A DNA stretch of 62,718 bases, counting the filler, from Collodictyon triciliatum (lineage: Eukaryota): the NCBI GenBank assembly GCA_043381765.1. It is 8 parts of 8 records of this genome, joined end to end, with 100 filler letters (N's around TTAATTAATTAA, not from the genome) between each part and the next. Parts side by side here need not be neighbours in the genome. Positions count along the whole stretch, not along the records: positions 1 to 8,043 come from JBHJMP010003584.1; 7 more parts are not named here. The stretch is one strand, 5' to 3'. How positions within the stretch are numbered: the first letter of the stretch is position 1; the number at the start of each line of letters is the position of its first letter. Under the pieces are notes generated by a model that worked only from the letters and a program-made list of their open reading frames with translations, searched no databases and was not told the DNA's origin. Positions 667-60,032 of this stretch are shown one piece after another. Position numbers and translations under genes: made by a program.

Positions 667-3600
667 ATGGCCGACGAGGCTGCGCTTTTACAAGAAGTCC
701 GAAAAATCGCCGGGAAACGCGACATCGCCTCTTTAAAAAGCTCCCAGAGTCTAGCTTTAGGAGGGAACGGCTTAACTTCCGTTCCCCATGGTGTCTTTTT
801 GTTGACTGGTCTGAAAAGATTGGGCCTTCATGACAATCAGTTGTCATCGCTGCCTCCAGAAATATCGTGTTTGATTGGTCTCGAATGGATTAATGTTCGT
901 GACAATCAGTTGTCATCGCTGCCAGCACAAATATCTTGTTTGACTGGTCTCAAATGGCTTAGTGTTCATGGCAATCAGTTGTCATTGCTGCCTCCAGAAA
1001 TATCATGTTTGACTGGTCTCATTGAATTTTATGTTAATGACAATCAGTTGTCAACGCTGCCTTCACAAATATCGTGTTTGACTGGTCTCATTGGTCTTTG
1101 GGTTAATAACAATAAGTTCTCATCGCTGCCTCCACAAATATCTTGTTTGACTGGTCTCACATATATCGGTGTTAGTGGCAATCAGTTGTCATCGCTGCCT
1201 GCACAAATATCGTGTTTGACTGGTCTCACATTTCTTGGTGTTTATGGCAACCCGGTATGTTTTCATTCATTTTTATTACTGTTTTATTTATGTTGAAAAG
1301 ATTAAGTTGCTGACAACGATACATGCAGATGGAGGAGCTTCCACCACAATTCACAGCGCTCGCAAATCTGAAGGAGCTCTACAACGAATACTGTGGAAGA
1401 ATTAATATAAAGAGAGCGCCGTGTGGCATCACAGCCCTTCCAGTGTGGAACAACACATCAAACTCACAAAACAAACACATCCGAAAGCTGCAGCTCTACG
1501 ACCCCGTAAGCACATAAAGATAAATAAAATAAAAAAAAGTATCCTAAGCACACAACAAAAACAGGAAGACGAAATTCTAAAGCCGGGATGGACACCAAGC
1601 GAGGCATATATCCAGCTCCACTCGCTGAATTTCACCGGAAGAAACATCTCTGTGCTTCCAGCCAACATCTCCCTCCTGGTGAATCTGAGCTTCATCGACA
1701 TCAGCCAGAACAAGGTATGTGAATCAAAAGCCGTAATAAGCATAAATCCCAATGATCGATGAACAACAAATTACACATGATTTGGCACTAATTACCTTTC
1801 TGCATGATGAATACGTGGCGATAATCGATACTTCCATCGATAGGTTGATTTTACTTCACTCATATAATGGTGAATCCATTCTATTAGTAATTTGATTACA
1901 ATTAAACCCTCTTTAATAAATAAATAGATATCCACACTACCAGCAAACATATCGAACTTGACGAATCTCACAAATCTCAGCATCGGCAACAATAAGGTAC
2001 ACACATTCATATATATTGAATATATTTAAAAAAACACAATTAAAACAGCCTATCATACATTCTACTTAGTTAATTAACAGAGAAATACGCGGGGATTTTA
2101 GCTCGACGCATTCCCCACAGTCATCTGTACAATAACACATATCGTGACCCTAAATATTTCTGGAAATCAGGTGATAAAGCTACACAACAGACATGTAAAA
2201 AAAAAAAACTATTGAATGAAACATTATGCAAACTATAGTAATCAAATACCCACTTAAACTCACCCATCGTACAAATCCAGATTTCACACATCCCAGATGT
2301 CATAGCAAACCTTGTAAATCTTCAAAAATTGGACATATCCAACAACAAGGTCAACCACTTTTCTATTTAAATCCTCCATTGGATTTTTCAATTAAGTTTT
2401 ATGGCCGTATTTCCCAAAAAAAAAAAAAAACTTACTGATACCATCATCAGATTGAAAAGTTACCTGAAATCATCGCCAAGCTTAAAGGCCTTCGAAGTGG
2501 ACTGAATATCCAAGAGAATCCTATCAAAAATATACCAGAGAACGTCACCAGAAATGGGTCTGAAGCAGTCTTCGATTTCCTATCAAACTCTATGAATGGT
2601 GTTGTAAAATGGACTCAGGGAAGACTCCTACTATTGGGCGAGGGAGGGGCGGGAAAGACTACAATCACCAAATCGATCACCCAAAATTACTGGTTCTTTT
2701 ATGATACCACAGACCAGCCAAGGATTGCAACTGATGGTATTGCCCATGTTGATATCGATGAGCCGATGATGGGTGGATTTTTCAAGACGAAGATTTCCGT
2801 ACGAATCTGGGACTTTGGGGGACAAGACGAGTTCCAAGTAACACACTCATTCTTTTTGTCATCAGGCGCCCTCGTTTTAATCCTTTACAGACTCGACCAA
2901 GACAAGGAGAAGAACAATCTCAGCCGCTGGGTCAAAATGCTTGATGACTTCGCACCTGGCTCAAAAATCATAATCGCTGGGACTCATCAAGATTGTGAAA
3001 ATCAAACTTATAGCCAGGATATGCAGAAAGAAATCGAACGTATCAAAAAAGAAAACGAGCAGAAACTGGATGAAAAGGCTCGTCACATCTTCATCAATAC
3101 AGAGTTTAAAATAAGCAACAAGAGTGGAACAAAGATATCGAGTTTGAAGGAAGAGATATATAAAGGAATGATGAGGCTTGATAACATGAACAAGGATATT
3201 CCAAAAACATACATCGGACTGAAAGACTATCTGAATTCAAAAAGTCAAATATCAAAGTACGACCGAATCCAAGACACTTACGATTTTGCCGAGAAGCAGA
3301 TGGGTATGGACAGAAATGGGTGCGAAAGTGCTCTCAAATTCCTCCATGACCTTGGCTCGGTCGTCTGGTATTCATCACTTGAATATATCAAAGACATACT
3401 TTTTTTAGATCCTCTATTTCTCATCAACATTTTCCGCTGTGTCTTCAGCTTCAAAGGCATCGGGAAGGACACAACTGGCATCATTTTGTTGGGCAAGCTA
3501 AAAGACCAAATCAAACAAGAACTGAATACAGAAATAGATGAACATGTGTTCAATACAATTCTTCGAATATTTGACCATTTCGGCCTTGGGATTCAATTCA

Positions 3601-6600
3601 ATAGAGAATGCATCGCCTTTCCCTCGTTGATGGAAGATTGCCAAAATATCAAGGCGTTGTGGAATAATAAACCAGAGTCAAACTGCATCGCTGAAACCTC
3701 TGTAAAAATAATAACCAATGGCGAAATCCAGCTCTCTGACAAAAGCAACGTCGTCATACAAGCACTTCGTTTGACAAAAGGGGCACAAGCTGGAGTTCAA
3801 TATGACGACCAGTTTTTTAGAGATGTTGCGTTCATACATCTGAATGCCTCCTACAAAACAGGAACGGATGAAATTCAACTGCTTCCTGGAGACGGTTTGA
3901 TTATTTTGTATCAAATCCACCAGAAGAATATTTCAGTCAAGATTAGAAAATACGAAAATGAGGTTCACGATGATGGCGATAGAATAGTCAGGATTTTTGA
4001 TATCCTTTCAACCTTCATCAAACAAATATCATCGATTCGACCAAATTTTGTGGACGCATATCGATTTGAATGCCCTGAATGCAAGCGTCGTGGATTAGAC
4101 GGTTATATTCAAACTTCGGCAAAGATAGATGAATCAGAATTGAAAGTGTGTAACCATAGCCATCAATTAGAAGCGAGTGCAGTAAAGCAAGGGCGCGTCT
4201 ATCTGGAACAAGGTTTATTATAATAAATATATTCGAATTATGTTAATTTTCAAATTAATAGTAGTTTGATTAAATATTATCGAAAGCTAGTAAATCATTT
4301 AATACTTGAAAAATAAAGGAATCTCGAAGAGATTTACCTCTGTGGTGAGAGCGAAAAAGAAAAAGACGCCGCAATCTGCTGAAGCAATTCTTGAGCTGGA
4401 TTCAATCGACCGGGAATTGAAGAAACAATGGATTCATGAAAAAATAGAACTGTCAGGTTATCTCGCAAAGGGAGCATATGGGCGAGTTTATACAACAATG
4501 CTCGAAGGAAAAGACGCTGTGGTCAAAATCCAAACAATCAAAGAAATGGGAAAGCAGACCCTCAGCCAGGTGATTCAATCGCTCATTTTTGAAAGCAAGT
4601 TTCTACATGAATGCAAAGAATGTGAAAATATAGTCAAATTATTTGGTGTTTATCGTAAAGACGACGACGACTTTTTCATGATTATGGAGAATGCAGGTAT
4701 TTCGTTGAAAACGATGTTGGAGAAGAAAAAGATTAAGCCAACATTATCTCAAATAATTTTTTACACAAAGCAACTTTGCAAGGGTCTCATTTTCATGCAT
4801 TCTAAAAATCTATATCACGAAGATTTGAAGGCCGATAATGTTATGATTGTGGGTGAAACAGTAAAAATTGTGGATTTTGGGATAGTGAGCCTTCGTGAAG
4901 TTGATAAAGTCGGGTCAAACTTACCGACGAGATTTGGTGAGAACAAGCAAGGCGGAACTGCAAACTGGCAAGCACCGGAAATCCATGAAGTTTCTTGTGA
5001 ACCGTTTTATAATGATAACCCAGAAATGTATGGTGAGGATGAAGTAAATCATGGGCACCGAGGAGAACCAAGCAACGTGTATGCTTTGGGAATGCTCGTT
5101 TGGTACATGTTCTCTGGTATCGAGCCGTTTCGGAATGAGACACAAACACAAAGTTTTGTCATCAGGGGATTACGACCAGACATACCGAAAGAAGCCACTT
5201 GTGAGCTTAACCACCTTATCAGAGTGTGCTGGAGGCAAAACTACAAGCTCCGACCTTCTCTGAATCAAGTTTGTGTATACTTGGATAAGTTGAAATCAGA
5301 TGGGCCGAGGCTTCCTCAAAAGATAATTAACGAATTGCTTCCAATTAAATATACTCCTTTGGCTGATATGTACCAGGGTGAATTTGTGGAGTGGCTGCGA
5401 GAGTATGGCTTCTTAAAACTAAGCGATACAATTTCAAATCAAAGCTGGATAAGTTTCAAAGAAATTCAAGACAAACTGGATGAAAGCACGATGGTTGAGA
5501 TGTATCACATATCGTCAGATGACATTTGTACATTTGTAGAACTATCGAAGGAGGAAGACACTAGCGATTCCCAAGCTCCAAATAAAAAAATTGAACAATT
5601 ATTTTACAGCCAATTGGTGACTCATCTGCAGAAAAAGAAAGACGAATTGTCGGAAAGACTGCTTGGGAAAGTGAAAGCCTTGAGGCTTGATGGAAACACA
5701 ATATCCAAGCTTGACCAGCCTGATGTCCACGCGACCCATTCGCTTTCTGAGCAAGAACTCTCGTTTGCATCCCAATTCATAAACGACCACCTACATCCAA
5801 ATGAGACTGAGTCTCCTAAACATCCATTAAGCTCCAGTACCCTTCAAGAATTGGAAGAAATTCAATATATGAATGTGCAGTACTCCCCTTACAATCATGG
5901 AATTCAACATGCAACTTCGCTGTGGATGGGCGATATGAAGCTCTCTCAGATTCCTGATTGGCTCAAGCATTTAGTTGGGCTAAAGAAACTCTACCTCCAT
6001 TCAAACGAAGTAATATTCACATAAATAAATAAAAAAAAAGGCCACCAACAAATTTTATTATTGACCATATTGTAACTCACCACCTTTTTACAGCTTGTAT
6101 CTTTCTCGGAGTCATGCTTCGCTCTTACAGGCCTAGTATATCTGGACTTATCAAAAAATAAGGTTTTCCTTTTGTGTTTTTTTTTCTTTCATTTACTAAT
6201 TTTTTTTTAAAAAAAATAATTAGTATTTAATTTCATACTTGCATTTGAATCAACCTCATTCATGCCTCCATTCTTATCATTTACTATGATTTACAGATAT
6301 CATCAATACCTGCTCAAATATCACACCTGACGGGTTTAACTCGCCTTGATGTCTCTCAAAATCAGTTGTCATCACTAACTTCAGAAATATCACACCTGAC
6401 GGTTTTAACTCGCCTTGATGTCTCTCAAAATCGGCTGTCATCACTACCTTCAGAAATATCATGCTTGAATGGTCTCACTCGCATTGATATCTTTCAAAAT
6501 CGGCTGTCATCACTACCTTCAGAAATATCATGCTTGAATGGTCTCACTCGCCTGGATGTCTCTCAAAATCAGTTGTCATCACTACCTCCAGAAATATCAT

Positions 6601-7179
6601 GCTTGAATGGTCTCACTCGCATTGATATCTCCCAAAATCAGTTGTCATCACTACCTTCAGAAATATCATGCTTGAATGGTCTTACTCGCCTCGATGTCTC
6701 TCAAAATCAGCTGATGTCACTGCCACAAGGATTATCGAGCTTAGCGTGCCTTGTACAGTTGGATATCCGTGATAATTCGGTTTGTTAAATGTATAAATGT
6801 CGAAAAGTCAGGCCACTATATTGAACTCATAATTATATTTCCATTCCTACAGATTGATGAGCTTCCTGCCGGAATTACTGCTCTGACTGCTCTCAGTCGC
6901 TTGCGCATCCGCAACAAAGAAGGAAAATCGAACATCAAGAAGGCGCCTCCCGGCATCACACTTCTCCCTTGTTGGAACGAGCAGAGCAATCCAGATTATG
7001 AAATTATTCGTAAACTGGAGCTTTATGACCACGTAAGAAATCTGTGTTTGTTATTCATTCGCACGCTGCTCATATTTAAATATATATGTATTCATCTGTT
7101 AGTGTTTCTTTTTTTGTTTTGTTTTGTTTAAAAATAAAGAAAATCCCAATTACTTGTTTTACCAAACGACCAGCAGTAA
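667..7179 (+). CDS. ROCO-family kinase: LRR-cap-LRR-Roc GTPase-COR-kinase-(2x SAM-like)-LRR-cap. Inferred exons 667-1255, 1329-1505, 1565-1714, 1928-1996, 2281-2349, 2451-4212, 4319-6009, 6094-6162, 6297-6779, 6853-7032 and a tentative tiny last exon ~7174-7179
   Basis: 23-aa LRRs (LSSLPPEISCLTGLxxLxVxxNQ). Roc motifs GEGGAGKT, WDFGGQDEF and GTHQD. COR-like ALKFLHDLGSVVWY. Kinase motifs AKGAYGRVY, AVVK, HEDLKADN, DFG and GTANWQAPE. All listed exons join in frame at GT-AG sites. The 3' end is uncertain. Confidence 0.88.
835..1248 (+). repeat. Six tandem 69-bp LRR-coding units (48-bp conserved framework + 21-bp variable block)
   Basis: The unit aatcagttgtcatcgctgcctNcaNaaatatcNtgtttgactggtctc recurs at 835, 904, 973, 1042, 1111 and 1180. 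Confidence 0.95.
6297..6779 (+). repeat. Seven tandem 69-bp LRR-coding units (C-terminal array, highly homogenised)
   Basis: The exon is 483 nt = 7 x 69. Units read TRLDVSQN / TRIDI(F/S)QN and share the framework aatcagttgtcatcactacct(t/c)cagaaatatcatgcttgaatggtctcact. Confidence 0.92.
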
Positions 7180-7949: not shown

Positions 7950-8043
7950 ATACATACATACATACATACATACATACATACATACATACATACATACATA
8001 CATACATACATACATACATACATACATACATACATACATACAT
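7950..8043. repeat. (TACA)n microsatellite at contig end
   Basis: Direct inspection. Confidence 0.97.
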
Positions 8044-8143
8044 NNNNNNNNNNNNNNNNNNNNNNNNNNNNNNNNNNNNNNNNNNNNTTAATTAATTAAN
8101 NNNNNNNNNNNNNNNNNNNNNNNNNNNNNNNNNNNNNNNNNNN
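8044..8143. other. Artificial contig linker (44 N + TTAATTAATTAA + 44 N). Identical linkers at 16253-16352, 24457-24556, 32652-32751, 40847-40946, 49032-49131 and 57216-57315
   Basis: Six-frame stop linker. The intervening segments are 8109, 8104, 8095, 8095, 8085 and 8084 bp, i.e. size-sorted contigs. Confidence 0.97.
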
Positions 8144-12200: not shown

Positions 12201-13545
12201 GACCAACCGTGGAAGAGCCCATGAAAAGATTTTCCCATCGTCTTGCTCCTAAGAGTACAGGCAATATCATTAAATGAGTGAATGCAGGCTTCATGATTAT
12301 ATAGGGAACTTAGTACGTAAAGATAAAAAAAAACTTACGTAAATCAAACACCCAGATGTCGTTCATCAGCACTTCGCTAACATACTGAGTCGAACCTCCA
12401 AATACGACGAATGATTCTTCATTTACCTTACAGAAACCAACTTCTTTCCTGTTGATTGGCTCCCTAATGATTGAAGTATCAACCCAGGTTCGCAGCTCTA
12501 TTAAATCAAAATTCTTGAGTAATAGTCTCAATTTGGCTTCAAATGTTCATGATTGGGTTTCCAATAGCTTCTTACGATTGTCCCAGACCCAAACGTCGTT
12601 GACAGCGTTCTTTTGAGAGGAAGCACCACCAATCATGACAAATCGCGAGTCGTAAGTCAAGTATGCTGAGCCAAACTTGGGTGGTGGATATAGAAGAGGA
12701 AGTTCTGGAGAAAAGAGTCCGTAGTTTTCGCGATAAACCACTTCAAGGGAGTCTATATTTGTTTTTGTTTTTTTTTATTTGTTATTTAAAGTCATTACAA
12801 GAGATCTGCAGGTTTATTATCGAGAATATGTTTATAAATATGGTTAGAAGGATAATTCACCTAGATTGACAATAATAATATCGTTCAACACTTCGCCCTT
12901 GCGTATTCCCCCGAAAATATAAAGCTCATTCCCATACTTTGAGCATGAAAATTGTTGCCTTCCAAACAAGCATATCCAACCTTCCTCGTCGCATTGAATA
13001 CATTCATCTGATTTTACCACAGTCTGGGATATTGGCCGAAATTCTGGTGTGGAGTGGTTTAGATACGATACTGTTAATAAATACTTTGGGCTGCAATAAA
13101 AAAGTATAAAAAAAACCTTTGTCAAGTAGGATGATATCTTCGGATTCTCCTTCTTCATCGATGCCACCAAAGATGAGGTTCTTGTTGGATGAGAATATTG
13201 CAGAGCCATATGCACGCGCGTAATTAGTTGTCCAAGTCATTTGAATAGATTCCCATTTGTCTAAATCTAAATCGCATAGTTAAACGCGAATCAACACATA
13301 TTGTTTCTATGAATGTATTGTCCCATCCAGTCATGTACATAAAGAAAATAAGATATGGTTGAAGTCTTGATTTTCGACTTTCTTAAGAAAAAGAAAAAAT
13401 AGAGAAGTAACAATGCCTGGGTAGTAAACAAATGATGTTGCTCGCAATTCACTTTTTTCCTGTTTAAAATGAAACAGAGATATGCATGGTAAAAAAAATA
13501 AAATACTGGACATGTAGCAGGATGATATACCTAATAATAATAATG

Positions 13546-13578
<33 letters not shown>

Positions 13579-16252
13579 GTAAAATTTCTTGAAGAAATTA
13601 CGTCTTTCCCTCCATACACAAAGATAGTGTCGCTATTTCTCTGACACTGGGCCCCAATAAGGGTTCTGGGTAAATTTGATTTTTTCGCCCAATTTCTAGT
13701 TGACGCATGAAAGAAATAAGTGGACTCATCAGGTGTGCCAACCTTTCCACCAATCAAGACGGCATATGAATCCATCGAAATCAAGCAACTGTGCACCCTT
13801 TTTGAGGGAACAGTCCCACTAACTTTTGCCAACTTCCATGTCGGATTGACTTCATGGGAGAAACAGACATTTTTAGAATTAAGGTATGTGCAATTAGGCA
13901 CCACTTTCGAATTTGGATCTGATGAACTGTACCTGGGGATTCTGCGTAGTAAACCTCATCCATGGAATAAAAGCGTTCATAATGGTCAGTGTCTGGTGAA
14001 GAGCTACCACCAATCACGAATATTTTCCCTTGAATTACGGCTGCTGTTCCATAAACAATCGGAGGCAGCCCATTACTGAGCTCAACTGCTTCGGTCTCCA
14101 CAACATGCTGTAACAAATCTATTGCATATTTGATATTAGTTGGTTCTACAATTTATTTCGCCTCATATGAAATGTGCACAGGGTATGAGAACCTCGGAAT
14201 GGAGTTTCTGGCGAAGGTGCATCTTGTTGGCACTTCAATTACATATGGTAGTACACATCAAAACATAAATTATTAAAATGAGTTGTTTTTTCTCATGGGA
14301 ATTACGATGCTAGTATAAAAGAACCCAGTTGAGCTTACCTCATCCCCAGATGAAGTATATAGGCCATTTATGCAAGGGACACATTCGCCGCGAAAGTTAA
14401 TATAATTTCCCTTCTTACACGTGCACCCACTCAAATCAGCTGAAAAGCCCAAATTACAGTCTGATAGAAATAATTGGATTAGTTTAATTTAACCACTAGA
14501 ACCATTGAGTATCTCGATAGTGTTTAAGGTCACGAACTGAATAGGAGGATAGAAAATCCAATGTTGGTCGCCGCGTCTTCCTCGACTCTGAAGGACAGCT
14601 GGATGTCTCTCGATATTGCTTCTACTACATCACCTTGCTTCATGTTGAAGAACGAGAGCTATCATGCAATATTGTCAGAGGAGAACATAGACGACAAGTA
14701 TTTATGTGTGTAGATACATCTTACGGCACCATTGTATCGGTTAAATAAAAACATTTTTATGGACGCGGTTCTTGTAGTTAAATCCAAGCCCACACTCGTC
14801 ACTTGGAGATAAATTCAATACTGCACCATCTGAGAGATCCACGTACTCAACCTGTTTCATGTATTCAATGAATTACGAGCGAATATATCGCATGAAATAG
14901 CTATAAATTTCTTTAATACTCAACTTTAAGAATATATAAGTATCCTATATTTCTTAGAATCGAATAGAGTAAAAAAAAGAAAAAAGGATCAGATACATTT
15001 ACTTACGACTATAAAATTTGCTCTCGTAATAATCCATTTGCAATTCGTCCCAGGAAAGTAAAGGAATTCCCCACTCCCATCAGTTATTCTGCCGCTGTCA
15101 CTTGCAAAGTAATCCACTCCGGAACACCATAATTTTCCTTTTTTATATAGTAATTATATAGGAATGTTCTTTATTAATTTGGATCATTTTTAATATATTT
15201 TCGTTTCTTTGAATCGATTAAACGGGAAAATATTGTCGTTTGAATGCATCAAAACAATATAAAATCGTCTTACTCAAGTCTAGTGTATACAGCCCATTTG
15301 TAGAAAGCCCAGGATTTATGCTGCCCCCGAATAAGAACATTATGTTGGATATTGTTATCATCGATGACCTCACCCTTCCAGGAGGGGCTTGTTCGATGGA
15401 CGGTAGCTCTGCCCAGTATGCAGATTTTACTAGGGAAAAACTGGATTAGTATCACCCTTCCAAGTTCCAAAAGAAATGCATAAAGATTACTGAAAATTTT
15501 GGAGATCTTCTGGAACTTTGAAATTTTTTTTGTTGTATACTTACGATTTCCCATCCACGTATCGGAGGATAATGTCCATTGGTTGAATCCCCCAAAAGCC
15601 ATTAGGTTTGATAAATGAACAGCTACAAAGCCGACTGAAATGCCCGGTGGATAAGTTGCAACTTTCTTCCATTTGTTAATATCTGCGGAGTGAAATGAGC
15701 CCTTTTATTTATTATATAATTTGAATATACATATTATATATTTATACATTAAAATATAATTTAAAAAAATCAAAATTGGTCCCAAAAATGATACCTTCAT
15801 TCCAACACCAAATTTCACGAAAAGCTCCGGGTAAATCGTAAATGTTGACGTCCAAGAAGCAAAACTGCTTGTTGATAACAATACCATCAGCCGATAGTCG
15901 AATCGCCGGTCCGTCGTCAGAATTTGGAATCGTAATACCAAACCCCTCGTCAAAATGATAAACATATATATTGGATGGGGGAACTGTCCCGTTGACATGC
16001 ATTCCACCCCACATGAAAAGCTTGTCTCCAATGATTGCGCTTGCAGATAGATAACGAACCCCAAGATCCATCCAAAAGGTATCAGAAGTATTCATATTGG
16101 ACCAATTCATGTATGCTAAAATTTAATTGAGTGAGTAATTGTTTTATCACATTCTCAAACGATAATTTGATGTTCTACTGAGATGGAGCCATTAGTTTGA
16201 GTTATGATACTATTTCCGAATATTGCAGTTTCATGATAGATTCGGGATATAG
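9216..16252 (-). CDS. Multi-exon receptor-like TKL kinase: many Kelch repeats + 2 CUB domains + EGF-like unit + TM + N-lobe of kinase (5' partial; kinase C-lobe absent)
   Basis: Kelch GG motifs (LFMWGG, AVLIGG, LYIFGG, FVMIGG, FVVFGG, IYISGG). CUB starts CSGVDYFASDSGRITDGSGEFLYFPGTNCKWII (~15010-15125) and FDDGSGEGMYFENSNCTWIL (~10620-10740). CPEKSDFNEESLKCECFEGY. TM IWIVIGATLGGFTLLAAVVGYWY. Kinase IGRGGYGEV, VAIKK, LRHPHIVLYMGAC, ICEFMKNGSL, ending at SDICKG|gt (9216). Confidence 0.85.
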
Positions 16253-16352
16253 NNNNNNNNNNNNNNNNNNNNNNNNNNNNNNNNNNNNNNNNNNNNTTAA
16301 TTAATTAANNNNNNNNNNNNNNNNNNNNNNNNNNNNNNNNNNNNNNNNNNNN

Positions 16353-17426: not shown

Positions 17427-20400
17427 TTAAAAAAGAGAGAGGAGAGAAAGTTGCCCAGAAAATACGAATTCTATTTCGAGATATCTAATTTCGCACCAAT
17501 AAGACACATGAGACCCAGGGAGTTGGATGTACTCGTGCAAGTTTTCAAGACTAAGCTCCTGAAGCATAAAGTCAAAGCGTGGTAATGTAGGAACATCTTC
17601 AGCCTTGGCCACGGCTGAGGAGTTGTCTTTGATGAATTTGCGTATTCTGTGATAGTCTGAAACGCAACCATCCAACGCTGGAATATACTCCTGGTCGTTG
17701 AAGGTGGGCTGAGTCACAGCCTCTGTTCTTTCGGGAAAGACAGAAGATGATTCAGGCATTTGCTGAGATGACTGGATGGCCTCTACATCAAACGCAGGCT
17801 CCGTCTGTGTTGGAGGCGCAAGCAACTGTTCGTGGGAGCTTTCGTCGGAATCAGATACATCTGACCTGCTCGACGATGTTTCGATTCCACAGGATTCGTC
17901 AGTAGATAACACAGCCAATCCGAGTCGACTTTGTTGGTTTGGAATTTCTATACTCGGAGAACTTGCTGTTGCTATAGCTATGGAACCAATGTCTTTAATA
18001 GATTCTTGAGGCTGCTTCCTGGGCGAAACAGAGAGCGATTTTCTTCGAAGTTCCAGCGGGAAAAAAGGAGATTTTGTCCGCTTTGAGTCACCTGATGAGT
18101 TTGCCAAAGATGCTTCATGCTCGGGAAATTCAGGCAAACTTGATGTAGAGGAAGGCTGGGCATGATGGGCTAAACTAGGCGAGAACATATGCTTGGAATC
18201 ATCATCAAATTAGAAAAAAAAAACTTCAGTAAATTCATGCAAAAATAATACTTGGTAGGAAAAAAACTTGTTATTATGAAAGAGGTGAAATAATGTGTGG
18301 ATAAGTGGATAAATCAGGAAATATATACTATAATATTAATGCAATCTTTTAGATATTTTATGGTATTTTAAAATGTTTTATGACATTTTAATTCATGGGT
18401 TCGAGTGAGAAAAATTCTTTTTTAAAAAAACCTGAAATCGCGGAGAATCAGGAAAACTGAAGGAAAATCGAGCTCCTCGGCTGCTGGAGGGGTCAGGAGA
18501 ACTTGATTGCGGTGGTTCATCTTCGGCACCAACCTGCCCAACTCTCCCAGAGGAAAATGACTGTCGTGCAGCAGATATTCTTTCGAGAGTTCTGGATTTC
18601 CGGTCGATAACAGCCTGGACTATTTGCTCTTTGGACTCGAGAAGTTGATCTATTTTCTGCTTCGTAAGATCTATCCATTGGGAATACAAGTGTCAGTGAC
18701 CCATGACTAATAAAATTTGAAAAAAAAGTCGATGATAAGATGCTTTCTATATTTCCTTTTTCTTTTAAAATAAGAAAATATATTATAAGCCGACTATACT
18801 ATGAAAATAAAAATACGCACACACTTTGGCTACTTTTAAACTTCCATGAACACAGGGACAGATGAAATATTACAAAAAGGAATAACCTCGAATCTCCTGA
18901 ATATTTTCCGATACTTTCTGTTTGATTTCTTCCTTTTTGTTCATGAATCCTTCGGATATTTCCATGATTTTGCGTAGTGTCTCTGGATAATGAGTAACTG
19001 GTTTTGGGCTTAATCTTGAGTACGATTCGTCGAGCCAGGGTTCGAACCTATGTTATCATTAAACCCTTGAGAGAAAGAGAGAAAAAAAGGGCTCTAGCCA
19101 ATTAATACATATGGTATGGCCCTATTCCTGGGTAGAAAAGGTGAAAAAGGAAGCCAGAGAAATACTTACCGATAGGCGATGGGGTCACCAATATTGAATA
19201 TATTAAAGAAATATTTTACACTTGGCAATGGCACCTACGAATATTCAAAGTAAACATGTATCAGCAAATATAGCCAGATCTATGTCCTTTTTCATGGAAA
19301 AATAACTCGTAAAGATAATATTTTCCCAAAGATGGAATCTTCGAAACAAACATCTCCAGTTTTTTCATAGTAAAGGCTCATATAAATTCCAATAGGGGAG
19401 CCTATGACAAAAAGAGTGTTCACTGTGAACTTTAATGGAGGAAATGTCATTCGGTTTCTAGTTGGGATATCCAGCACAACAGGGGTTCCATCTTCACTCT
19501 GTCAAGGACGTGAGCATTTTAAAAAAATTGAAAGGAAGTTTTGTGCAAATTCGAAACGGTAAAGCTTGGTTTCATATCCAAAGGGAAAGTATAATCACCA
19601 TGACAAGTCAAAGAAAAAAAAAAGGAATAAGCTTTTCCCATGAAACGCACAATTGGCATCAAAGAAACAACTGACCTGATGAGTAAGAATGTCAAAACAG
19701 GCAACGCTACCCAAGCTGTGTGCGATAATAGATGTCTAGGGGAAAAAAAGTTACTCTCAAGATTCCCCGAAGTAGACGGTATGCAAGGAATTTTATAACG
19801 TGTAGCTATAATGGAATTTTCTCGCTTTGGTTGGAAGTAAACAAACCTTTCCGTTGAATTTATCACCAACAGGATTAGCTTCGATAAATTCGTTGTATTT
19901 ACAATTTAGGCGATTTGTTATCTGTGAATTAGTAACGTTACCGGTTTGCTGATAACGATGTAAAAAAAAAAAGATTTCTTTAATCTCCATAACAAATTGC
20001 TAACAGGATTATTTACTCCAAAAATGTAAATACCTCCATCAAGATTTTTGGACCATACTTTGCGCTTAGATAGGTAAAGCAGTCACCCAATGTATCATTA
20101 ATGATAAGCCTCAACTTTCTAGTTGTTTCCAAAGTCACTGGGTTTACTATTCTAAAATTTGAAAGAGAGATGGATATGTAGGTGTGTTGAAATATTGCTT
20201 TTGGTACTTTTACTTGGCTATATTTATAGTTTGCAAAATAAGTCTTATCTGTAGCTTGATTTTTAATTAATGTGCTCATTTGAACAAAAGTAAGATGTGA
20301 GAATGATGGATTGAATGAAATATGTTTACTTGTCCCATCCGAGCTGCTCATGGACATATGAATGCCATTCGACGACTACAAACTCGATATTCAAGGTTTT

Positions 20401-24456: not shown

Positions 24457-24737
24457 NNNNNNNNNNNNNNNNNNNNNNNNNNNNNNNNNNNNNNNNNNNN
24501 TTAATTAATTAANNNNNNNNNNNNNNNNNNNNNNNNNNNNNNNNNNNNNNNNNNNNTTTTTCTTTTTTCTTTTTTCTTTTTTCTTTTTTCTTTTTTCTTT
24601 TTTCTTTTTTCTTTTTTCTTTTTTCTTTTTTCTTTTTTCTTTTTTCTTTTTTCTTGGTCCTTGAACAACTTGGGGGGATCACAAACAGCCTTATTGTTTT
24701 TTTTCTTACGTCAATGACACAAACCGGTTATCCAAAG

Positions 24738-27700
24738 GTCCCCCCAGAGGTCGCAAATGCGCGAAGACTCGCACGAGAAGACATCGAAGGCGGCCGCTTG
24801 GATCAGGCATTGAAGACACTCAACGAGGTTCGGTTAGTCAGCTGCATATTGCTTCTGCGCTCACAAGATTTGTGTATGCCTCTGAGCACAGGCCTTATCT
24901 TGCGATTTTCTCACGAGACGCTTGCATGTAGATGATTGACAAACACCCAGAGTGTCATCTGTCCTACATGGACCGGGCTTGTCTACACTTTTTGATGGCT
25001 AAGTCAGTGGACACTCTCTTTAAGAAAACGAAGAAAGAAAGAAAGAAAAAAAAAAGGAGCCTATCTAGGCTGATTCAAAAACACTCACTCAGTTTTGACG
25101 CGCACAAGCCTCCGTCTCTCAAATCCGCATTGGCCTTCTACCAACGATCTTAATTATATCTATTTTGTTTTATCTAAATACACTAGGTTCAGTGCCGGCT
25201 TCGAAGACTTACACGCGTGTATCAGAGTCACTCCACTCTACTTTGCTGTACTATCACATCAGTTCATCTCGTGCTTCTCTCAACATATCAAACTTGTTAA
25301 AGACTATATCTCCTACATCAGAGTATGGTGTCCGTATGTTGACGCATTTTTATTTGTTTAGGAGTTCATATCTGTGGCAAACTCGCAACTGAGAATCAAT
25401 CGCCCCAAGGCATGCCTCGGCTTGATCATTTTCGTCCTCATGCAGTCCACCACACGAATTCCAATCGACCAGATATATGATGCGCTTGTATTGCTATCGA
25501 GAGCCCTATTCCCCTCCGAACCCAGTCCAGAGTCCTCTCAGAAGCCAGAAAAGATGGACGACTATTTCCGTTGCAATCTTTGCAGCCATCTGCTTGTTGC
25601 TCCGGTGACGAATGCATGTGGACACAGCCTCTGTTTCTACTGCGCTGACTCTGCGCATGTATGCCCCACGTGCCGGTTCCCGTGGATGAAGGAAAACGCA
25701 CAAACAAGTGTTGCATTAGACCAGATTATCTGCATCGTCGACCCCCAAAGCCATTCCACCTACAAGTCACTGAGCCACATCCTCAAGAAGCAGATTAAGT
25801 GTCCACTGGAGGTTTGAACTAACTTTTTGTTTGGTTCTTTTAATTATAAAAGAATTGGAATTCTTATGTTATAGCCATGATGAAGATGATATAGGATGAA
25901 GAATGTATGTCCGTAGGTGTATGAAGTTTATGATCTTCTTGAACAGTTCGACATGAAGCTTATTCAAAACTTAGGCTGCAGAGAAACTGGACAGACTTGC
26001 ATCTGAGAAGCCCGATAGCGTGCCTGTGTCTGTATTGAGAATAACGTCGTTGCAATCACAAGGAAAAGTTATGGATGCACTTCTTCAATCATTTTTGAGT
26101 CTAAAAAGGAGTCCAAAAAGTCTCGACTTACTGTCCGTCACATGCCAGACCATCAACTCATTTTTCACACTCACACCGTCAGTCGAGGTAACCCAGATTC
26201 CATTCTCATATACTTTTAGACTAATGCTCGATTCATTCTTCAACACAGTTGTTTTTATCTTTCAATGCCAACATGCAAACTGGTGTCCAACCAACATTAT
26301 GTACATAGGAGTCCATATCAACCAAGATGTACCATCTTGTAGCATATTTTTTCCGCGAATATCTAAGGTATACACCAAATCACAAACTTACAGATCTTTA
26401 TAGCCGAAGGAGCTATTTATTTAATACGGGCGCATATTCATTTCCTTGTACTTACATTAAACTACCCAAAGAATCGAAGAAATTTATAATATGAAATGGT
26501 GTAATTATGTAAAATAAAATAAAAAAGAATCAAGAAACGAGATATATTCCCTCTTTTACGCACAACAGACGCATCGACACAAACGAGGTAGCTTGTTCAC
26601 AAAAACGGCAGGAGAACATCACCCGTTCCTTCGAGCCATTATTTGCAAAGATGGCCAACACTCGATTCCTGGACTCTATTGTCTGCAGCAACTGGCCCTT
26701 GGCAGACACTACCCCACCCATATGCGTCTTGCTGGGCGACTTGGAGCAGTATGCACAGGCCCAAATACAGGCTGCAGAGGCGCCGACTTGTGAACCCGTT
26801 TTCTTGGCCAAGAGGCCTGCGTGCTCGTCCGAGGAATGTGCCGATGGGTCGCGCAGTTGCAAACAGAGCGTCCGCCGTGAGCCTGCATCATCGCTTCGAG
26901 ACAAGATTCTGGAAGAGCTGCAGTGCATTTTATGCATGGAGCTGATGCTCGACCCGGTCACCACGTCATGCGGGCATTCATTCTGCAAAGTCTGCCTTAC
27001 TCGGAATCTAGACCATCGAAACACGTGCCCGCAGTGCCGCGCTGACTTGCAGGACTATATTCGTCCGGACCTGCAGGTTGTGGACCAAACGCTCTCTGGT
27101 ATCATCCACTGCGAATACAAAGGTGTCTTCTTGCGTAATATGCGCATGCTTTCGAGATATTCCTCGGTCCCATTTTCCTTTTTCTTATTTATTTTTTTCA
27201 ATCTTCCTTTATTTACTACACCGTCTAGCACGCTTCAACGATTTCATCTTGGATACTTTCTTTTATAGCTGAGTACGAGGAGAGAGTCAAGAGCCATCAG
27301 AAGGAAGTTGCCCAGCAAAGGCAATATCTGCCCATTTTTGTGTGCTCTCTTCTGCTGCCGCACATCGAGTGTCCACTGCATATATTTGAACCAAGATATA
27401 GGTTGCTACTTATTTTTATACATCCTTTCCTATATAAGTCTGTTTTATTTCCCTTGATGGTTTGTTGACCCACGAATTTATTTATTTATTTATTTTTTAC
27501 CAAAACGACCATTCAAATGTTATTGTAAATGATAATAATAACAAAAACTATACTATGATTAATGTCGTTGACATATACTCTTGACTTTATTTCGTCTCCA
27601 CGCACATATGCCTGTATGACTACCAGTCAGTCTGTATAGACCATGGAATGATTCTTATATAAATCGAAGAATAAGAAGGGCGAAAAAACGAGCCCTTTCG

Positions 27701-32367: not shown

Positions 32368-32887
32368 CTGGGTGAATTGAGGGATTTGTATGAGCCTTTG
32401 TGAATCTGAATGGGTTGTTTATATTACATTCTGTTTAGTTTTAATCTTGGGCTGTTGTTTGTGGGGAACATATTGGTCTCATAGTTTTGGGGTTATAATG
32501 GTGTTATTTCATGTGTGCTTTGAGGTTTTCTTACATTTTTTTGGTTTTTTGGTTTTCTTGTTTTTTGTTTTTTGTTTTTTGTTTTTTGTTTTTTGTTTTT
32601 TGTTTTTTGTTTTTTGTTTTTTGTTTTTTGTTTTTTGTTTTTTGTTTTTTGNNNNNNNNNNNNNNNNNNNNNNNNNNNNNNNNNNNNNNNNNNNNTTAAT
32701 TAATTAANNNNNNNNNNNNNNNNNNNNNNNNNNNNNNNNNNNNNNNNNNNNAGGAGGAGGAGGAGGAGGAGGGGAGGGGAGGGGAGGGGAGGGGGGCAAT
32801 GTCTGCGAGAATTTAAAGACGATATCAAATTCTTGAAAATAAAAACCTACATCAACAAAACCAAACAATAAAAGTAAAATCAGAAAA

Positions 32888-40760: not shown

Positions 40761-41117
40761 CTTCGGTTGGAAATTAATGTTGGTGAATAAGAGAGACAAA
40801 CCGTACATAAAAAAAAAAAGGGGAGAGATTTTCACCTTTTCTAAAANNNNNNNNNNNNNNNNNNNNNNNNNNNNNNNNNNNNNNNNNNNNTTAATTAATT
40901 AANNNNNNNNNNNNNNNNNNNNNNNNNNNNNNNNNNNNNNNNNNNNCTCTTTTTTTTTTCTTTACATGTTTCCTTTCAACGTTGGGTAGTATTTTCAACA
41001 TCACGACTAGGAATCAAAGGAGAAAGCACGGGAAAAGAAAAAGAACCCCAGCTCTCAATAATCTAGCGCGCTTCTTGGATAGTAGGGAAACATATGCAAC
41101 CATGTTTTAGTTTTTAG

Positions 41118-48918: not shown

Positions 48919-49232
48919 AGAGAACAATAAAAAGAGAACAATAAAAAGAGAACAATAAAAAGAGAACAATAAAAAGAGAACAATAAAAAGAGAACAATAA
49001 AAAGAGAACAATAAAAAGAGAACAATAAAAANNNNNNNNNNNNNNNNNNNNNNNNNNNNNNNNNNNNNNNNNNNNTTAATTAATTAANNNNNNNNNNNNN
49101 NNNNNNNNNNNNNNNNNNNNNNNNNNNNNNNAAAAGACATAAAAAAGACATAAAAAAAGACATAAAAAAAGACATAAAAAAGACATAAAAAAGACATAAA
49201 AAAAGACATAAAAAAGACATAAAAAAAGACAT
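48919..49232. repeat. Minisatellites on either side of a linker: (AAAAAGAGAACAAT)n at 48919-49031 and (AAAAAGACAT)n at 49132-49232
   Basis: Direct inspection. Confidence 0.9.
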
Positions 49233-57015: not shown

Positions 57016-57315
57016 GTAAGTGAGACGGAACATATCGCGAATACAAGTTTAGACTGTGACAATACTTTTCAATGAGAGCGGTACAAAAGAAAAAGAAAAA
57101 GAAAAAGAAAGTAAGAAAGTAAGAAAGAAGAAGAAAGAAAGAAGAAAGAAGAAAGAAGAAAGAAGAAAGAAGAAAGAAGAAAGAAGAAAGAAGAAGAAAG
57201 AAGAAAGAAGAAAGANNNNNNNNNNNNNNNNNNNNNNNNNNNNNNNNNNNNNNNNNNNNTTAATTAATTAANNNNNNNNNNNNNNNNNNNNNNNNNNNNN
57301 NNNNNNNNNNNNNNN

Positions 57316-58380
57316 ATCGACCCATGAATTCAAAATGAGTCTTTTCAAATGACTCTTTTGTTAATTCATACCATTGTTCCTGGCACTTGTTTTTGTATGT
57401 GAAAAAAATAATTTTATAAAGAGCTTCAAAATATTTTTCAGGCAAGACTTTTTTGAGCATAGTAAGTATTGTCCTAAATGTAATTGGGCGTTTAGACTTT
57501 GGCGCTTGTTGTAGTTGGTTTAATTTTTGAAGTCGTTCTTTGCTACTTGAGTCTTGAGAATCCGGCAACTGTTCACAAACTTTTAACCAGGTCTCTTGCA
57601 AATTGTCAAAATTAGCATTTATTAAAACAAAACCATACTTGACCCAGTTGTCATAATCCGCTGGAATTGATTTGAACAATTCTCATTCCAACATCTTATC
57701 AATTAACACCTCGGTGAAAATCTTGTCTTGCAAAGGGCAGTTGGCTTTTGTTTTGTTTTCAAGTATGTGACAAATATAGCGTTCAATGTTTTCCGTCATA
57801 GCTTGTTCAATAATGCGTTTCTTTGATTTGAACAGATGTGAAATATTTGAAATATCAAATTCCGTTATTTCATTCCTAAACATTTTATCCTCACGCTCCC
57901 AAATGTTTTTCGTGTATTTGATAGTATCCACTGCTGGCATTCCTTCACCAAACACTTTAGTGCCTTCCATTGACTTTTCAAAAATTTTTACTTTTACATA
58001 GACATGAAAGCCTTTGTTATTACCTCGTGTCCAGCACATCGAATTATTGATTGTTGGAACATTTAGAATTTGCCCCTGTTTATTGGGGTCGTTTATCTCT
58101 TCGGAATCGCTATCAATACACACGAGGTCTTCGACATATTTGAGATAAAGTGATACAACTCTAAAGCATTTATCTTTCCTCTCCTCTCTGGTGACTCGTC
58201 TTTTAAGATATGTGCAATAGGTATTGTACATACTTTTACTCTTTTCTTTATACTCTTGTAACTCATTTAATGAGCAGTCGTTCTTCTCAATGATAGTATG
58301 CTTTTTACCTTTTTCTAAATAGTAATGGGCATAGGCATATGGGATTTTGTTTGAAGCTACAAATTCAATCAATTCATTTT
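57316..58380 (-). pseudogene. Intronless viral/mobile-element-type primase-polymerase (AEP/Prim-Pol) + PriCT-2-like domain, probably the N-terminus of a primase-helicase; one in-frame TGA at 57683-57685; truncated by contig end
   Basis: LVCIDSD (DxD), TRGNNKGFHVYVKV (His motif) and AVDTIK. Same frame continues MLE*ELFKSIPADYDNWVKYGFVL (PriCT-2 Y..W...G..L) and WYELTKESFEKTHF. Confidence 0.65.
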
Positions 58381-58640
58381 CCCTTTGTTATTGAAAGTGC
58401 AGCGAGGTTGTGCCATACAAAAGGGCGAGATAGGTGCGCATGGTAGAGAGCTAACGCAAGTAGTAGAAGACACTGTGGAGAGGCTAGCACCGGAAAGAAA
58501 TAGTATAGCATTTGGTCAGGGGCGACCCAACTGGTTGATTGGTTGAGTAGCAAGGGTTGAATATGCTGTGGGAGATATGTTACGACACGTTGCCATATCT
58601 CTCTTCTCTTGTGGTCAGAGAAGCGAAGAAGAGGTTACTG

Positions 58641-60032
58641 CGCTTTATAAATCAAACAGTTCCTAAAGATGAGAATATGGCGGAAGCTATTAAAAAGGCA
58701 AAGTTACGAAATTAAAAAAAAAGCCATCTTCAAGAATCTCGAAATACCGGAACAAAATAAAGAGTGGGATAAATAGATTGGCATCATATCATTCCTAGCA
58801 ATATTGTAAATGGTATCGAATATGACGGCAAAGTCAATCCAAATAAGTACACTCCATGTCTGATTTACATGAATCGCATTTCGAGGACATTGGAACCAAA
58901 CTTTTTCAATCAATCTCTATAAGAACTGCCAATATACCCTGTCATATTACTCTAGATAATGCATGTTTGATATAGGTATTAGTATCATCTGAAAACATTA
59001 TTAATGAATATATATATATATCAGGTGCAAAGAGACACTATGGGATGATTTCTTTGAAATGAAGAAGAGGGTCTTTCATCAAAGAGACTACAATTTTATA
59101 TACATGATACAAACAGATGGCTTGGCGGTGTCATTATTGTTTGAAAAGAAAGTTATTTTAAATTCAAGATTCAAATATAACCAAAACAAAAAACCCCAAG
59201 AATGTGTGTATATGGATGAACTTTCCGAAGAGCAGTTATCAATATTAGCGAAAAGAAAATTGTTGGAGTGGACGCAGGCAAGTTTAATTTGGTTTACATG
59301 GTGGATGAGACAGGTAAGAAATTACGTTACACGGCACACCAAAGACATGATAGCAAATCTCTTAATAATCACAAAATACTCTTGTGCGAGAACGAAAAGT
59401 ACAATTACCCAGGGATATGTATGATAACAGATTTACAAAGTGCCGTTTCTTTTGGTCCCATGAATTTTGAAGAGAATCAGCAGTTTGAGACATCAAGAGT
59501 ATCTTTAATCGATTTAGAGACAGAACTGAGTAAACAAAATTTATGCATCGTCGATTATGAAAAATTTCGGAAATATGTATCTATGAAATCAAGATGCCAG
59601 ATAGAATTATCCAGATTTTATGAACAAGTAAATTTTCGAAAGATGAGATGGAGACAGCATGTTAATACAAAAAGAAGTGGACAGTTGTTTATGGACCGAA
59701 TCGAAAAGACATTAGGCAAGGATGTTGTACTAGGGTATGCAGACTGGAGCAGAAAATGTCCGATGAAACATTTTATGCCATCAATCGAAAGAGGATTACG
59801 AAAAATACTGTCCAAAAGTTTTGAAACAGTTAGCGTAGATGAATTTAGAACATCCAGGATGTGTTGCAACTGCGAAAAAGAACTGGATTAAATGAAACCG
59901 AAAGGAAATTCAAAAAAGGTGCATAGATGTCTCATATGTAAAGAATGCAATCGCTAAGAAAGCAAACAAAAAACCGTATTCTTGACAAGGGACTTAAACA
60001 GCGCTAATAATATACTCAAGAAAGTTCTTTTA
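58641..60032 (+). pseudogene. Decayed Fanzor1 (eukaryotic TnpB-like RNA-guided nuclease), 5' truncated, with several frameshifts and stops
   Basis: RFIN; HIIP..IEYDGKVNPNKY..LIYMN; KLFQSISIRT.IPCHITLD; LWDDFF..F.YMIQTDGLAVSLLF. RuvC-I VGVDAGK (D at 59271). ETELSKQN; YADWS...MPS..GLRK; VDEFRTSRMCCNC; HRCLICKEC. RuvC-III TRDLNSANNI (D at 59991). Stops at 59889 and 59955. Confidence 0.85.

Follow-up and report, generated by a model that had tools for sequence, protein, structure and literature searches.

Gene organization at the locus

We analyzed a 62.7-kb stretch of DNA (62,718 nucleotides; the window) from the protist Collodictyon triciliatum (assembly GCA_043381765.1). Its first contig carries, on the plus strand, a gene with a tandem array of 69-bp leucine-rich repeat (LRR) units in exon 1 (array 1). 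With the predicted splices, the gene encodes an LRRK-like LRR-Roc-COR-kinase (ROCO) protein followed by a second LRR module. The gene model has eleven exons and ten canonical GT-AG introns, nearly all in phase 0, and the splices were inferred from reading frame and splice signals. An earlier note on this DNA, made from the sequence alone, had assigned the array to a ROCO gene. This assignment is borne out by the Roc, COR-A, and Pkinase domains that lie downstream of the LRRs in a single, consistent GT-AG gene model.

Exon 1 (667 to 1254) starts with the first ATG after a stop and contains an N-terminal cap and array 1, ending before a GT donor at 1255 (Pfam LRR_8, E = 1.5e-19). Exon 2 (1329 to 1505) encodes a 59-residue module that belongs to no Pfam family, is a paralogue of 6853 to 7032, and recurs in relatives from Diphylleia rotans. 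Two more LRRs are encoded by exon 3 (1565 to 1714), and exons 4, 5, and 6 (1928 to 1996, 2102 to 2170, and 2281 to 2349) are 69-nt phase-0 exons of one LRR each. Exon 7 (2451 to 4212) encodes the last LRR of this module, the Roc GTPase (about 2622 to 2993), and COR-A (about 3201 to 3596). The Roc match covers the full length of PF08477 (1 to 119 of 119; E = 4.9e-18), and COR-A (PF16095, E = 2.2e-11; residues 251 to 382 of exon 7) follows Roc on the same polypeptide. The Pfam search of exon 7 returned no separate COR-B match at E≤0.01. An inferred GT-AG intron at 4213 to 4318 restores the frame between the COR exon and exon 8 (4319 to 6009), which encodes a protein kinase (about 4462 to 5274; Pfam Pkinase, E = 2.1e-34) and then, in a continuous frame, a stop-free linker of about 245 residues and the repeat that opens the second LRR module. 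By eye, the P-loop, DxxGQ, and THxD-type guanine motifs are present in Roc, and VxK, HxD, and DFG are present in the kinase. The second module continues with a 69-nt phase-0 exon of one LRR (exon 9, 6094 to 6162), a second array of 69-bp units (array 2; exon 10, 6297 to 6779; LRR_8, E = 1.1e-32), and exon 11 (6853 to 7032), the paralogue of exon 2 (51% amino acid identity). The gene model remains open after exon 11 at 7032; the contig itself stops at a join after position 8043. This is the one ROCO-like gene in the window, with no other such sequence beyond 7100.

The open frame after the kinase (5281 to 7032) comprises about 245 residues without a Pfam family and then an LRR module that mirrors the N-terminal layout (cap, single-LRR exon, 69-bp array, and exon-2-like exon). 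Either the protein has an unusual LRR-Roc-COR-kinase-LRR architecture, or this segment is the beginning of a tandem paralogue that is fused in frame. The module of about 60 residues that follows each array (1329 to 1505 and 6853 to 7032) has the pattern '..ELP......L..L..L........K.AP.GIT.LP.WN..........KL.LYD.' and no Pfam match. It recurs several times in the ROCO-like D. rotans proteins P0122 and P0123 and may be a family-specific irregular repeat or cap.

Variable blocks and conserved frameworks in array 1

Tandem Repeats Finder placed array 1 at 830 to 1250, with a 69-bp period, 6.1 copies, and 81% matches. In the reading frame set by the ATG at 667, the array extends from 802 to 1254, with full 69-bp units starting at 802, 871, 940, 1009, 1078, and 1147 and a 39-bp partial unit at 1216 to 1254. 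The whole array lies inside exon 1, the end of which at 1254 cuts the seventh unit, and the frame is open through all seven units. Each unit encodes a 23-residue LRR, L-T-G-L-[7 residues]-N-Q-L-S-S-L-P-x-x-I-S-C. Codons 5 to 11 form a variable 21-nt block, and 48-nt frameworks lie between the blocks. The blocks span 814 to 1248 (814 to 834, 883 to 903, 952 to 972, 1021 to 1041, 1090 to 1110, 1159 to 1179, and 1228 to 1248) and read, in order, KRLGLHD, EWINVRD, KWLSVHG, IEFYVND, IGLWVNN, TYIGVSG, and TFLGVYG, exactly the seven peptides listed in the earlier note.

The differences among units are concentrated in these blocks. For the six full units, the mean pairwise nucleotide difference was 0.444 in the 21-nt block versus 0.090 in the 48-nt framework, and none of 20,000 column shuffles gave clustering as strong. 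The most divergent circular 21-nt window begins one base away from the block as first delimited. At minimum, 23 changes are needed on the 21 block sites versus 12 on the 48 framework sites (binomial p = 1.8e-5). Within the block, the difference was 0.56, 0.41, and 0.36 at codon positions 1, 2, and 3, respectively. The claim that third positions are largely kept holds for codons 9 to 11 (difference of 0 in the full units, with the partial seventh unit in agreement) but not for codons 5 to 8 (0.53 to 0.80). The framework, described as fixed, differs little among units, but 9 of its 16 codons vary, five of them non-synonymously. Likewise, the buried GTT codon, said to be invariant in the six full units, is constant in units 2 to 7 (five full units and the partial one), but unit 1 has CTT. 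The 48-bp scaffold is still about 91% identical among units, and the proportion of synonymous differences per synonymous site (pS) in the framework is 0.11 (0.112) within array 1. The recent expansion proposed from the sequence therefore stands, in the sense that the units are recent copies or recently homogenized.

The block coincides with the predicted beta-strands of the LRRs. In an AlphaFold single-sequence model, the main strands E74-77, E97-100, E120-124, E143-147, E166-170, and E189-193 fall on the blocks of units 2 to 7, in agreement with the placement of the divergence on a beta-strand in the earlier note. The model was of moderate confidence (mean pLDDT of 61.5, with 62 to 80 over the array and less than 50 for residues 1 to 51) and served for strand positions alone. 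Together with matches to Pfam LRR_8, LRR_4, and LRR_1, the modeled strands on the block point to a canonical LRR solenoid of the LxxLxLxxN type. The closest sequence matches among solved structures were the LRRs of LRRD1, Leptospira LIC proteins, and SHOC2 (E values of 5e-70 to 1e-53).

In the established LxxLxLxxN geometry, repeat positions 5, 6, 8, 10, and 11 are solvent-exposed on the concave sheet, and the buried positions are 7 and 9. The substitutions in array 1 fit this geometry, with conservative swaps at position 7 (L, I, or F only) and position 9 (L or V only) and a wide variety at the other five positions, which together hold 13 different residues. Relative to the whole model, these five x positions are enriched in Trp/Tyr/Phe (20% versus 7.5%, p = 0.014) and in Gly (20% versus 5.8%, p = 0.0036).

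An origin of this pattern in misassembly or somatic rearrangement is hardly credible. The array would then be a read chimera of several loci, or the blocks would have been inserted somatically from donor cassettes, as in lamprey variable lymphocyte receptor (VLR) genes. The assembly is indeed a draft of joined contigs, in which 8 pairs of long N runs (16 in all) each enclose a 12-base linker and 3 more N runs occur, and the 48-bp frameworks are long enough to mislead short k-mers. However, every block is unique, so that reads of at least 100 bases would link neighboring blocks. In addition, the frame is intact across the seven units, no framework-flanked cassettes occur elsewhere in the window on either strand, and the exon is a complete open germline exon rather than an incomplete gene with a spacer.

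Array 2 as an internal control

Array 2 was placed at 6300 to 6713 by Tandem Repeats Finder, with a 69-bp period, 6.0 copies, and 88% matches. Its framework has 84% nucleotide identity to that of array 1. The blocks of array 2 are nearly uniform (TRLDVSQ four times, TRIDIFQ, and TRIDISQ), with differences at 0 to 4 of the 21 sites. For this block, the ratio of non-synonymous to synonymous differences per site (pN/pS, Nei-Gojobori) was 0.58 and the maximum-likelihood omega was 0.49. Because the array 2 block is nearly uniform in the same gene, the block is not intrinsically hypermutable, and the diversity is specific to array 1. Units 3 to 6 of array 2 (within 6327 to 6740) alternate between TRIDI(F/S)Q and TRLDVSQ, an alternation that points to very recent duplication of a two-unit segment (138 bp). 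The copy number of so uniform an array may be collapsed in a short-read assembly.

Selection, drift, or homogenization

Diversifying selection on the array 1 block is suggested by several estimates. The maximum-likelihood omega was 3.6 for the block versus 0.57 for the framework. In the three most similar neighbor pairs (units 2/3, 4/5, and 6/7), pS was 0.114 in the block and 0.120 in the framework, whereas pN was 0.291 versus 0.099, giving a block pN/pS of 2.55. This pattern fits whole-unit copies with faster amino acid change in the block. The earlier note had called the array a diversifying module and proposed dN/dS across units as a check. The omega point estimates of 1.3 to 3.6 agree with that claim, but the likelihood-ratio test (about p = 0.05) and the Fisher and binomial tests (p > 0.3) do not establish it.

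It is very unlikely that plain relaxation accounts for the data, with unconstrained x positions drifting neutrally after a single recent expansion and with neither selection nor framework homogenization. Such drift predicts a block divergence equal to the framework synonymous divergence. The observed values over all pairs differ about fourfold (0.444 versus 0.112), so that drift alone is unlikely. By minimum changes per site the excess is about threefold, with at least 23 changes on the 21 block sites and 4 on about 12.5 framework synonymous sites (p = 0.0099). Array 2 shows no such drift despite a similarly alike framework in its inner units, and the composition of the x positions is biased. 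The observations that relaxation would explain are a block Nei-Gojobori pN/pS near 1 (1.2 to 1.3) and the rejection of omega = 1 only at about p = 0.05.

The best explanation, to which we give a probability of roughly 65%, is that 814 to 1248 is the core of the N-terminal LRR domain of an LRRK-like ROCO kinase, in which duplicated units have diverged on the predicted binding face. In this history, a 69-bp unit would have been duplicated in tandem and in frame within one exon, by unequal exchange or slippage, to give seven repeats. The units would be young, or still exchanging sequence within the array, or both, as is suggested by a scaffold (N-x-L-x-x-L-P-x-x-I-x-x-L-x-x-L) that has remained about 91% identical. 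The seven beta-strand codons would have diverged about fivefold more than the scaffold, mainly at the five solvent-pointing positions of LxxLxLxxN, with conservative swaps (L/I/F and L/V) at the two buried positions. The concave surface would thereby become heterogeneous, with many Gly, Trp, Tyr, Asn, and Asp residues, and would most likely bind a specific partner and so feed the Roc-COR-kinase output.

Several points weigh against this explanation. The block Nei-Gojobori pN/pS is only 1.3 over all pairs, because the apparent block pS is also high (0.35). The test of omega = 1 for the block gives a 2*deltalnL of 3.84 (about p = 0.05) from seven codons on a saturated tree with about 9 substitutions per codon. 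The contrast in the neighbor pairs, which were picked by block similarity, rests on about 16 changes and is not significant (Fisher block versus framework, p = 0.34; binomial test of the block non-synonymous share against the neutral expectation, p = 0.32). A simple duplication tree fits poorly, because block and framework distances are uncorrelated (Mantel r = -0.21) and incompatibility affects 46 of the 91 pairs that the 14 informative sites form. The sequences are also few and short (six or seven units of 69 nt). The splice between COR and kinase (4212/4319) and the joining of the second LRR module are predicted solely from reading frame and splice signals, and we know of no ligand for any ROCO LRR domain.

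A possible but clearly less likely alternative, which overlaps the explanation above, is concerted evolution of old repeats with old blocks. Short-tract gene conversion or unequal exchange would homogenize the 48-bp scaffold within an array and less so between arrays, and the blocks would escape because they are rich in mismatches or would be preserved by selection. This alternative draws on the graded synonymous divergence, which is 0.11 in the framework within array 1, 0.36 to 0.45 between arrays, and 0.73 between the adjoining paralogous exons (1329 to 1505 and 6853 to 7032, with only 55% nucleotide identity). Furthermore, the units of arrays 1 and 2 do not correspond by position despite their similar number (about seven) in both modules, the apparent block pS (0.35) is three times the framework pS, and block and framework similarities are incongruent. 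However, the third positions of codons 9 to 11 are invariant and the codons for the same residue are mostly identical in units 2 to 7, which argues against old blocks. The block pS is inflated by multi-hit codons, and in the neighbor pairs block and framework pS are equal (0.114 and 0.120). In array 2, homogenization carried the block along with the framework. A PHI-type recombination test on the 14 informative sites found no distance-dependent incompatibility. The recombination in the framework that the earlier note envisaged thus has indirect support from the graded synonymous divergence, but neither the PHI-type test nor the Mantel correlation (r = -0.21) provides a signal of it. Selection for new surfaces and homogenization of the framework probably both contribute, and the two are inseparable from one locus.

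Searches for relatives and for a receptor repertoire

The 24-nt framework core, with up to 3 mismatches allowed, occurs 8 times in the window versus 0.01 expected, and all 8 copies lie inside array 1 or array 2. The earlier note had taken the array as part of a pattern-recognition repertoire and proposed a search for further frameworks with attached 21-mers. Within the 62.7-kb window, this search yielded these 8 copies and none outside the two arrays.

For the Roc-COR exon, no close relative was found among 5.8 billion proteins. The best matches, at longer lengths, were two D. rotans transcriptome proteins with 35% and 32% identity (E values of 2e-59 and 1.6e-53), and these transcripts, as the best named relatives in the protein search, support the protist affinity of the gene. 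At near protein lengths, the search returned only ROCOs with 22 to 30% identity, of which those with a source name were bacterial or archaeal. The LRR exon matched generic LRR proteins with identities of 47 to 50% at best. No close paralogue appeared in the word-index protein searches or the HMMER search. With array 2, HMMER gave 111,711 matches, of which the best 150 were all long LRR proteins with at most 53% identity, a result that is uninformative on paralogues. Several of the returned proteins, none of them close, combine a conserved N-Q-L-S-S-L-P-x-E-I-G-Q-L-T-x-L scaffold with variable strand residues. This pattern is therefore common at the protein level, and the unusual part of array 1 is the scaffold identity at the nucleotide level. 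In the literature, we found no paper mentioning both Diphylleia and Roco.

A metagenome scan with exon 1, using patterns taken from the variable blocks, retained 1 locus of 140 candidate stretches, with 36% identity, and gave no useful relative. Separately, this locus (L001) contains at 4049 to 4275 a 72-bp LRR-like tandem repeat that is unrelated to the array and whose consensus has an in-frame TGA, which may reflect a different genetic code or a pseudogene. Words of the gene were found in only two public runs, both freshwater or lake metagenomes, at 5 to 6% of the sampled words, and no RNA run was among them. One freshwater metagenome yielded 65 short contigs 85 to 99% alike on the gene, which covered 28 of 30 bins, although 45 of the 65 lay only partly on the gene. 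Three of these contigs have another block before the same framework at 1179, and one contig of the second run has 73 letters between 1162 and 1297 versus 134 in the window. These contigs, which could be paralogues or come from other species, are a weak hint of relatives with other blocks or unit numbers.

The repertoire itself is a hypothesis that the retrieved data neither support nor refute. The array would be one of many germline-encoded, fast-diversifying pattern-recognition receptors, shaped by point change on the concave face and recombination in the framework, as in brown-algal LRR-ROCOs and plant NLRs. We consider this unlikely. It is consistent with the focus of divergence on the concave face, omega point estimates above 1, x positions rich in Gly, Trp, Tyr, Asn, and Asp, and the weak hints from metagenome contigs. 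Four of the LRRs also lie in their own phase-0 69-nt exons, as in brown-algal ROCOs, which have one LRR per exon according to two reports (PMC3341825, PMC11378527). However, there is a single gene in 62.7 kb, with framework copies confined to its two arrays, and no close paralogue (best identities of 47 to 50% for the LRR exon and 35% for Roc-COR). Array 2 is uniform, the opposite of diversification, and the metagenome contigs may be from other species. Any LRR binding surface normally differs from one repeat to the next within the same protein, and such differences do not in themselves amount to allelic or paralogue diversity. In addition, kinase-bearing ROCOs are of the LRRK type, which is known for signaling rather than recognition roles.

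A bolder, rather unlikely proposal is that ROCO kinases serve as germline-encoded, fast-diversifying intracellular receptors in this little-sampled freshwater protist lineage. Birth and death of units and framework-guided exchange within one exon would make new concave faces, and array 2 would be a freshly homogenized "blank" still to be diversified. The LRR-receptor logic seen in plant NLRs, brown-algal ROCOs, and lamprey VLRs would then have been invented independently and linked directly to a kinase output.

As it stands, the locus is a well-behaved case of something familiar, namely LRRs with a conserved scaffold and variable residues in the strand. If selection were confirmed, a remodeled ROCO LRR face beside an unremodeled copy of the same scaffold within one protein would amount to a natural experiment on the function of the LRR input domain in a ROCO kinase. 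If a family were found, the idea of a variable LRR face on ROCO proteins would extend beyond brown algae to another eukaryotic lineage.

Other features of the window

A spacer of the form N(44)-TTAATTAATTAA-N(44) recurs at 8044 to 8143, 16253 to 16352, 24457 to 24556, 32652 to 32751, 40847 to 40946, 49032 to 49131, 57216 to 57315, and other positions. The window is thus a chain of joined contigs, and adjacency across the joins is no evidence of linkage. Two long intron-less open reading frames (ORFs) lie near the end of the window and may belong to a mobile element. In the first (57316 to 58387, minus strand), PriCT_2 (primase C-terminal) matched only weakly, at an E value of 0.006 that falls below the cutoff. 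The second (59220 to 59891, plus strand) has no Pfam match and, by eye, ends in Cys-x-x-Cys after a conserved acidic stretch, an ending that we take to be reminiscent of TnpB/Fanzor-type nucleases. Three exon-sized ORFs look like ordinary neighboring genes and match RING fingers (25362 to 27268, plus strand; zf-C3HC4_2, E = 4e-11), a DDHD domain (17427 to 18209, minus strand; E = 1e-5, below the cutoff), and Kelch repeats (13464 to 13955, minus strand; E = 3e-6, below the cutoff).

Comparison with known systems

The predicted protein shares the LRR-Roc-COR-kinase order with LRRK-type ROCO kinases such as human LRRK1/2 and the Dictyostelium Roco kinases. Over Roc-COR, however, it has 22 to 25% identity to animal LRRKs (E values of 1e-15 or weaker), below that to bacterial and Diphylleia ROCOs, and on search ranking and identity it does not qualify as an ortholog of animal LRRK1/2 or of the Dictyostelium Roco kinases. 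Unlike LRRKs, it has no ankyrin, armadillo, or WD40 parts detected here, and a second LRR module follows the kinase. The LRRs of LRRKs are not known to be recent tandem copies. The ROCO-like transcripts of D. rotans (EukProt EP00002; P0122 and P0123) share with this gene an unusual module of about 30 residues after the LRR run, of the '...RAP.G...LP.W......KL.LY..' type. According to precomputed Pfam lists, COR is followed in them by an AAA/NTPase region rather than a kinase. Each of their LRRs has diverged individually, and neither transcript has an array of near-identical repeats.

The repeats resemble cytosolic LRR solenoids of the SHOC2, LRRD1, and Leptospira LIC type in their length of 23 to 24 residues and their N-x-L-x-x-L-P-x-x-I pattern, and SHOC2 binds its partners through the concave sheet. 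However, none of those proteins is a ROCO protein, and their repeats are not known to be recent tandem copies. Lamprey VLRs similarly combine an LRR scaffold with hypervariable concave strand residues. In contrast to array 1, which lies in a complete and open exon with no cassettes in the window, they arise by somatic assembly, in which flanking cassettes are joined into a germline gene that is itself incomplete.

As a precedent, the brown-algal LRR-ROCO candidate receptors of Ectocarpus and kelps come closest. In PMC3341825, each LRR of these proteins is described as a 72-nt phase-0 exon, and exon shuffling is inferred; PMC3341825 and PMC11378527 report positive selection at concave positions. 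Unlike in the brown-algal genes, the seven variable repeats here form an in-frame tandem array in one exon (667 to 1254) rather than one per 72-nt exon, which puts them out of reach of exon shuffling and alternative splicing. The repeat here also has 23 residues rather than 24, and a kinase follows COR. The best relatives retrieved here were from D. rotans and not from brown algae, in searches that were not set up to rank stramenopile ROCOs, and no gene family or cluster was seen within the window. As in the brown-algal LRR-ROCOs, some LRRs occupy phase-0 exons of their own, here 69 nt long (1928 to 1996, 2102 to 2170, 2281 to 2349, and 6094 to 6162). Both systems place N-terminal LRRs before Roc-COR and combine a conserved scaffold with variable concave-face residues, for which the role proposed in the brown algae, in both reports (PMC3341825, PMC11378527), is the generation of new binding specificities.

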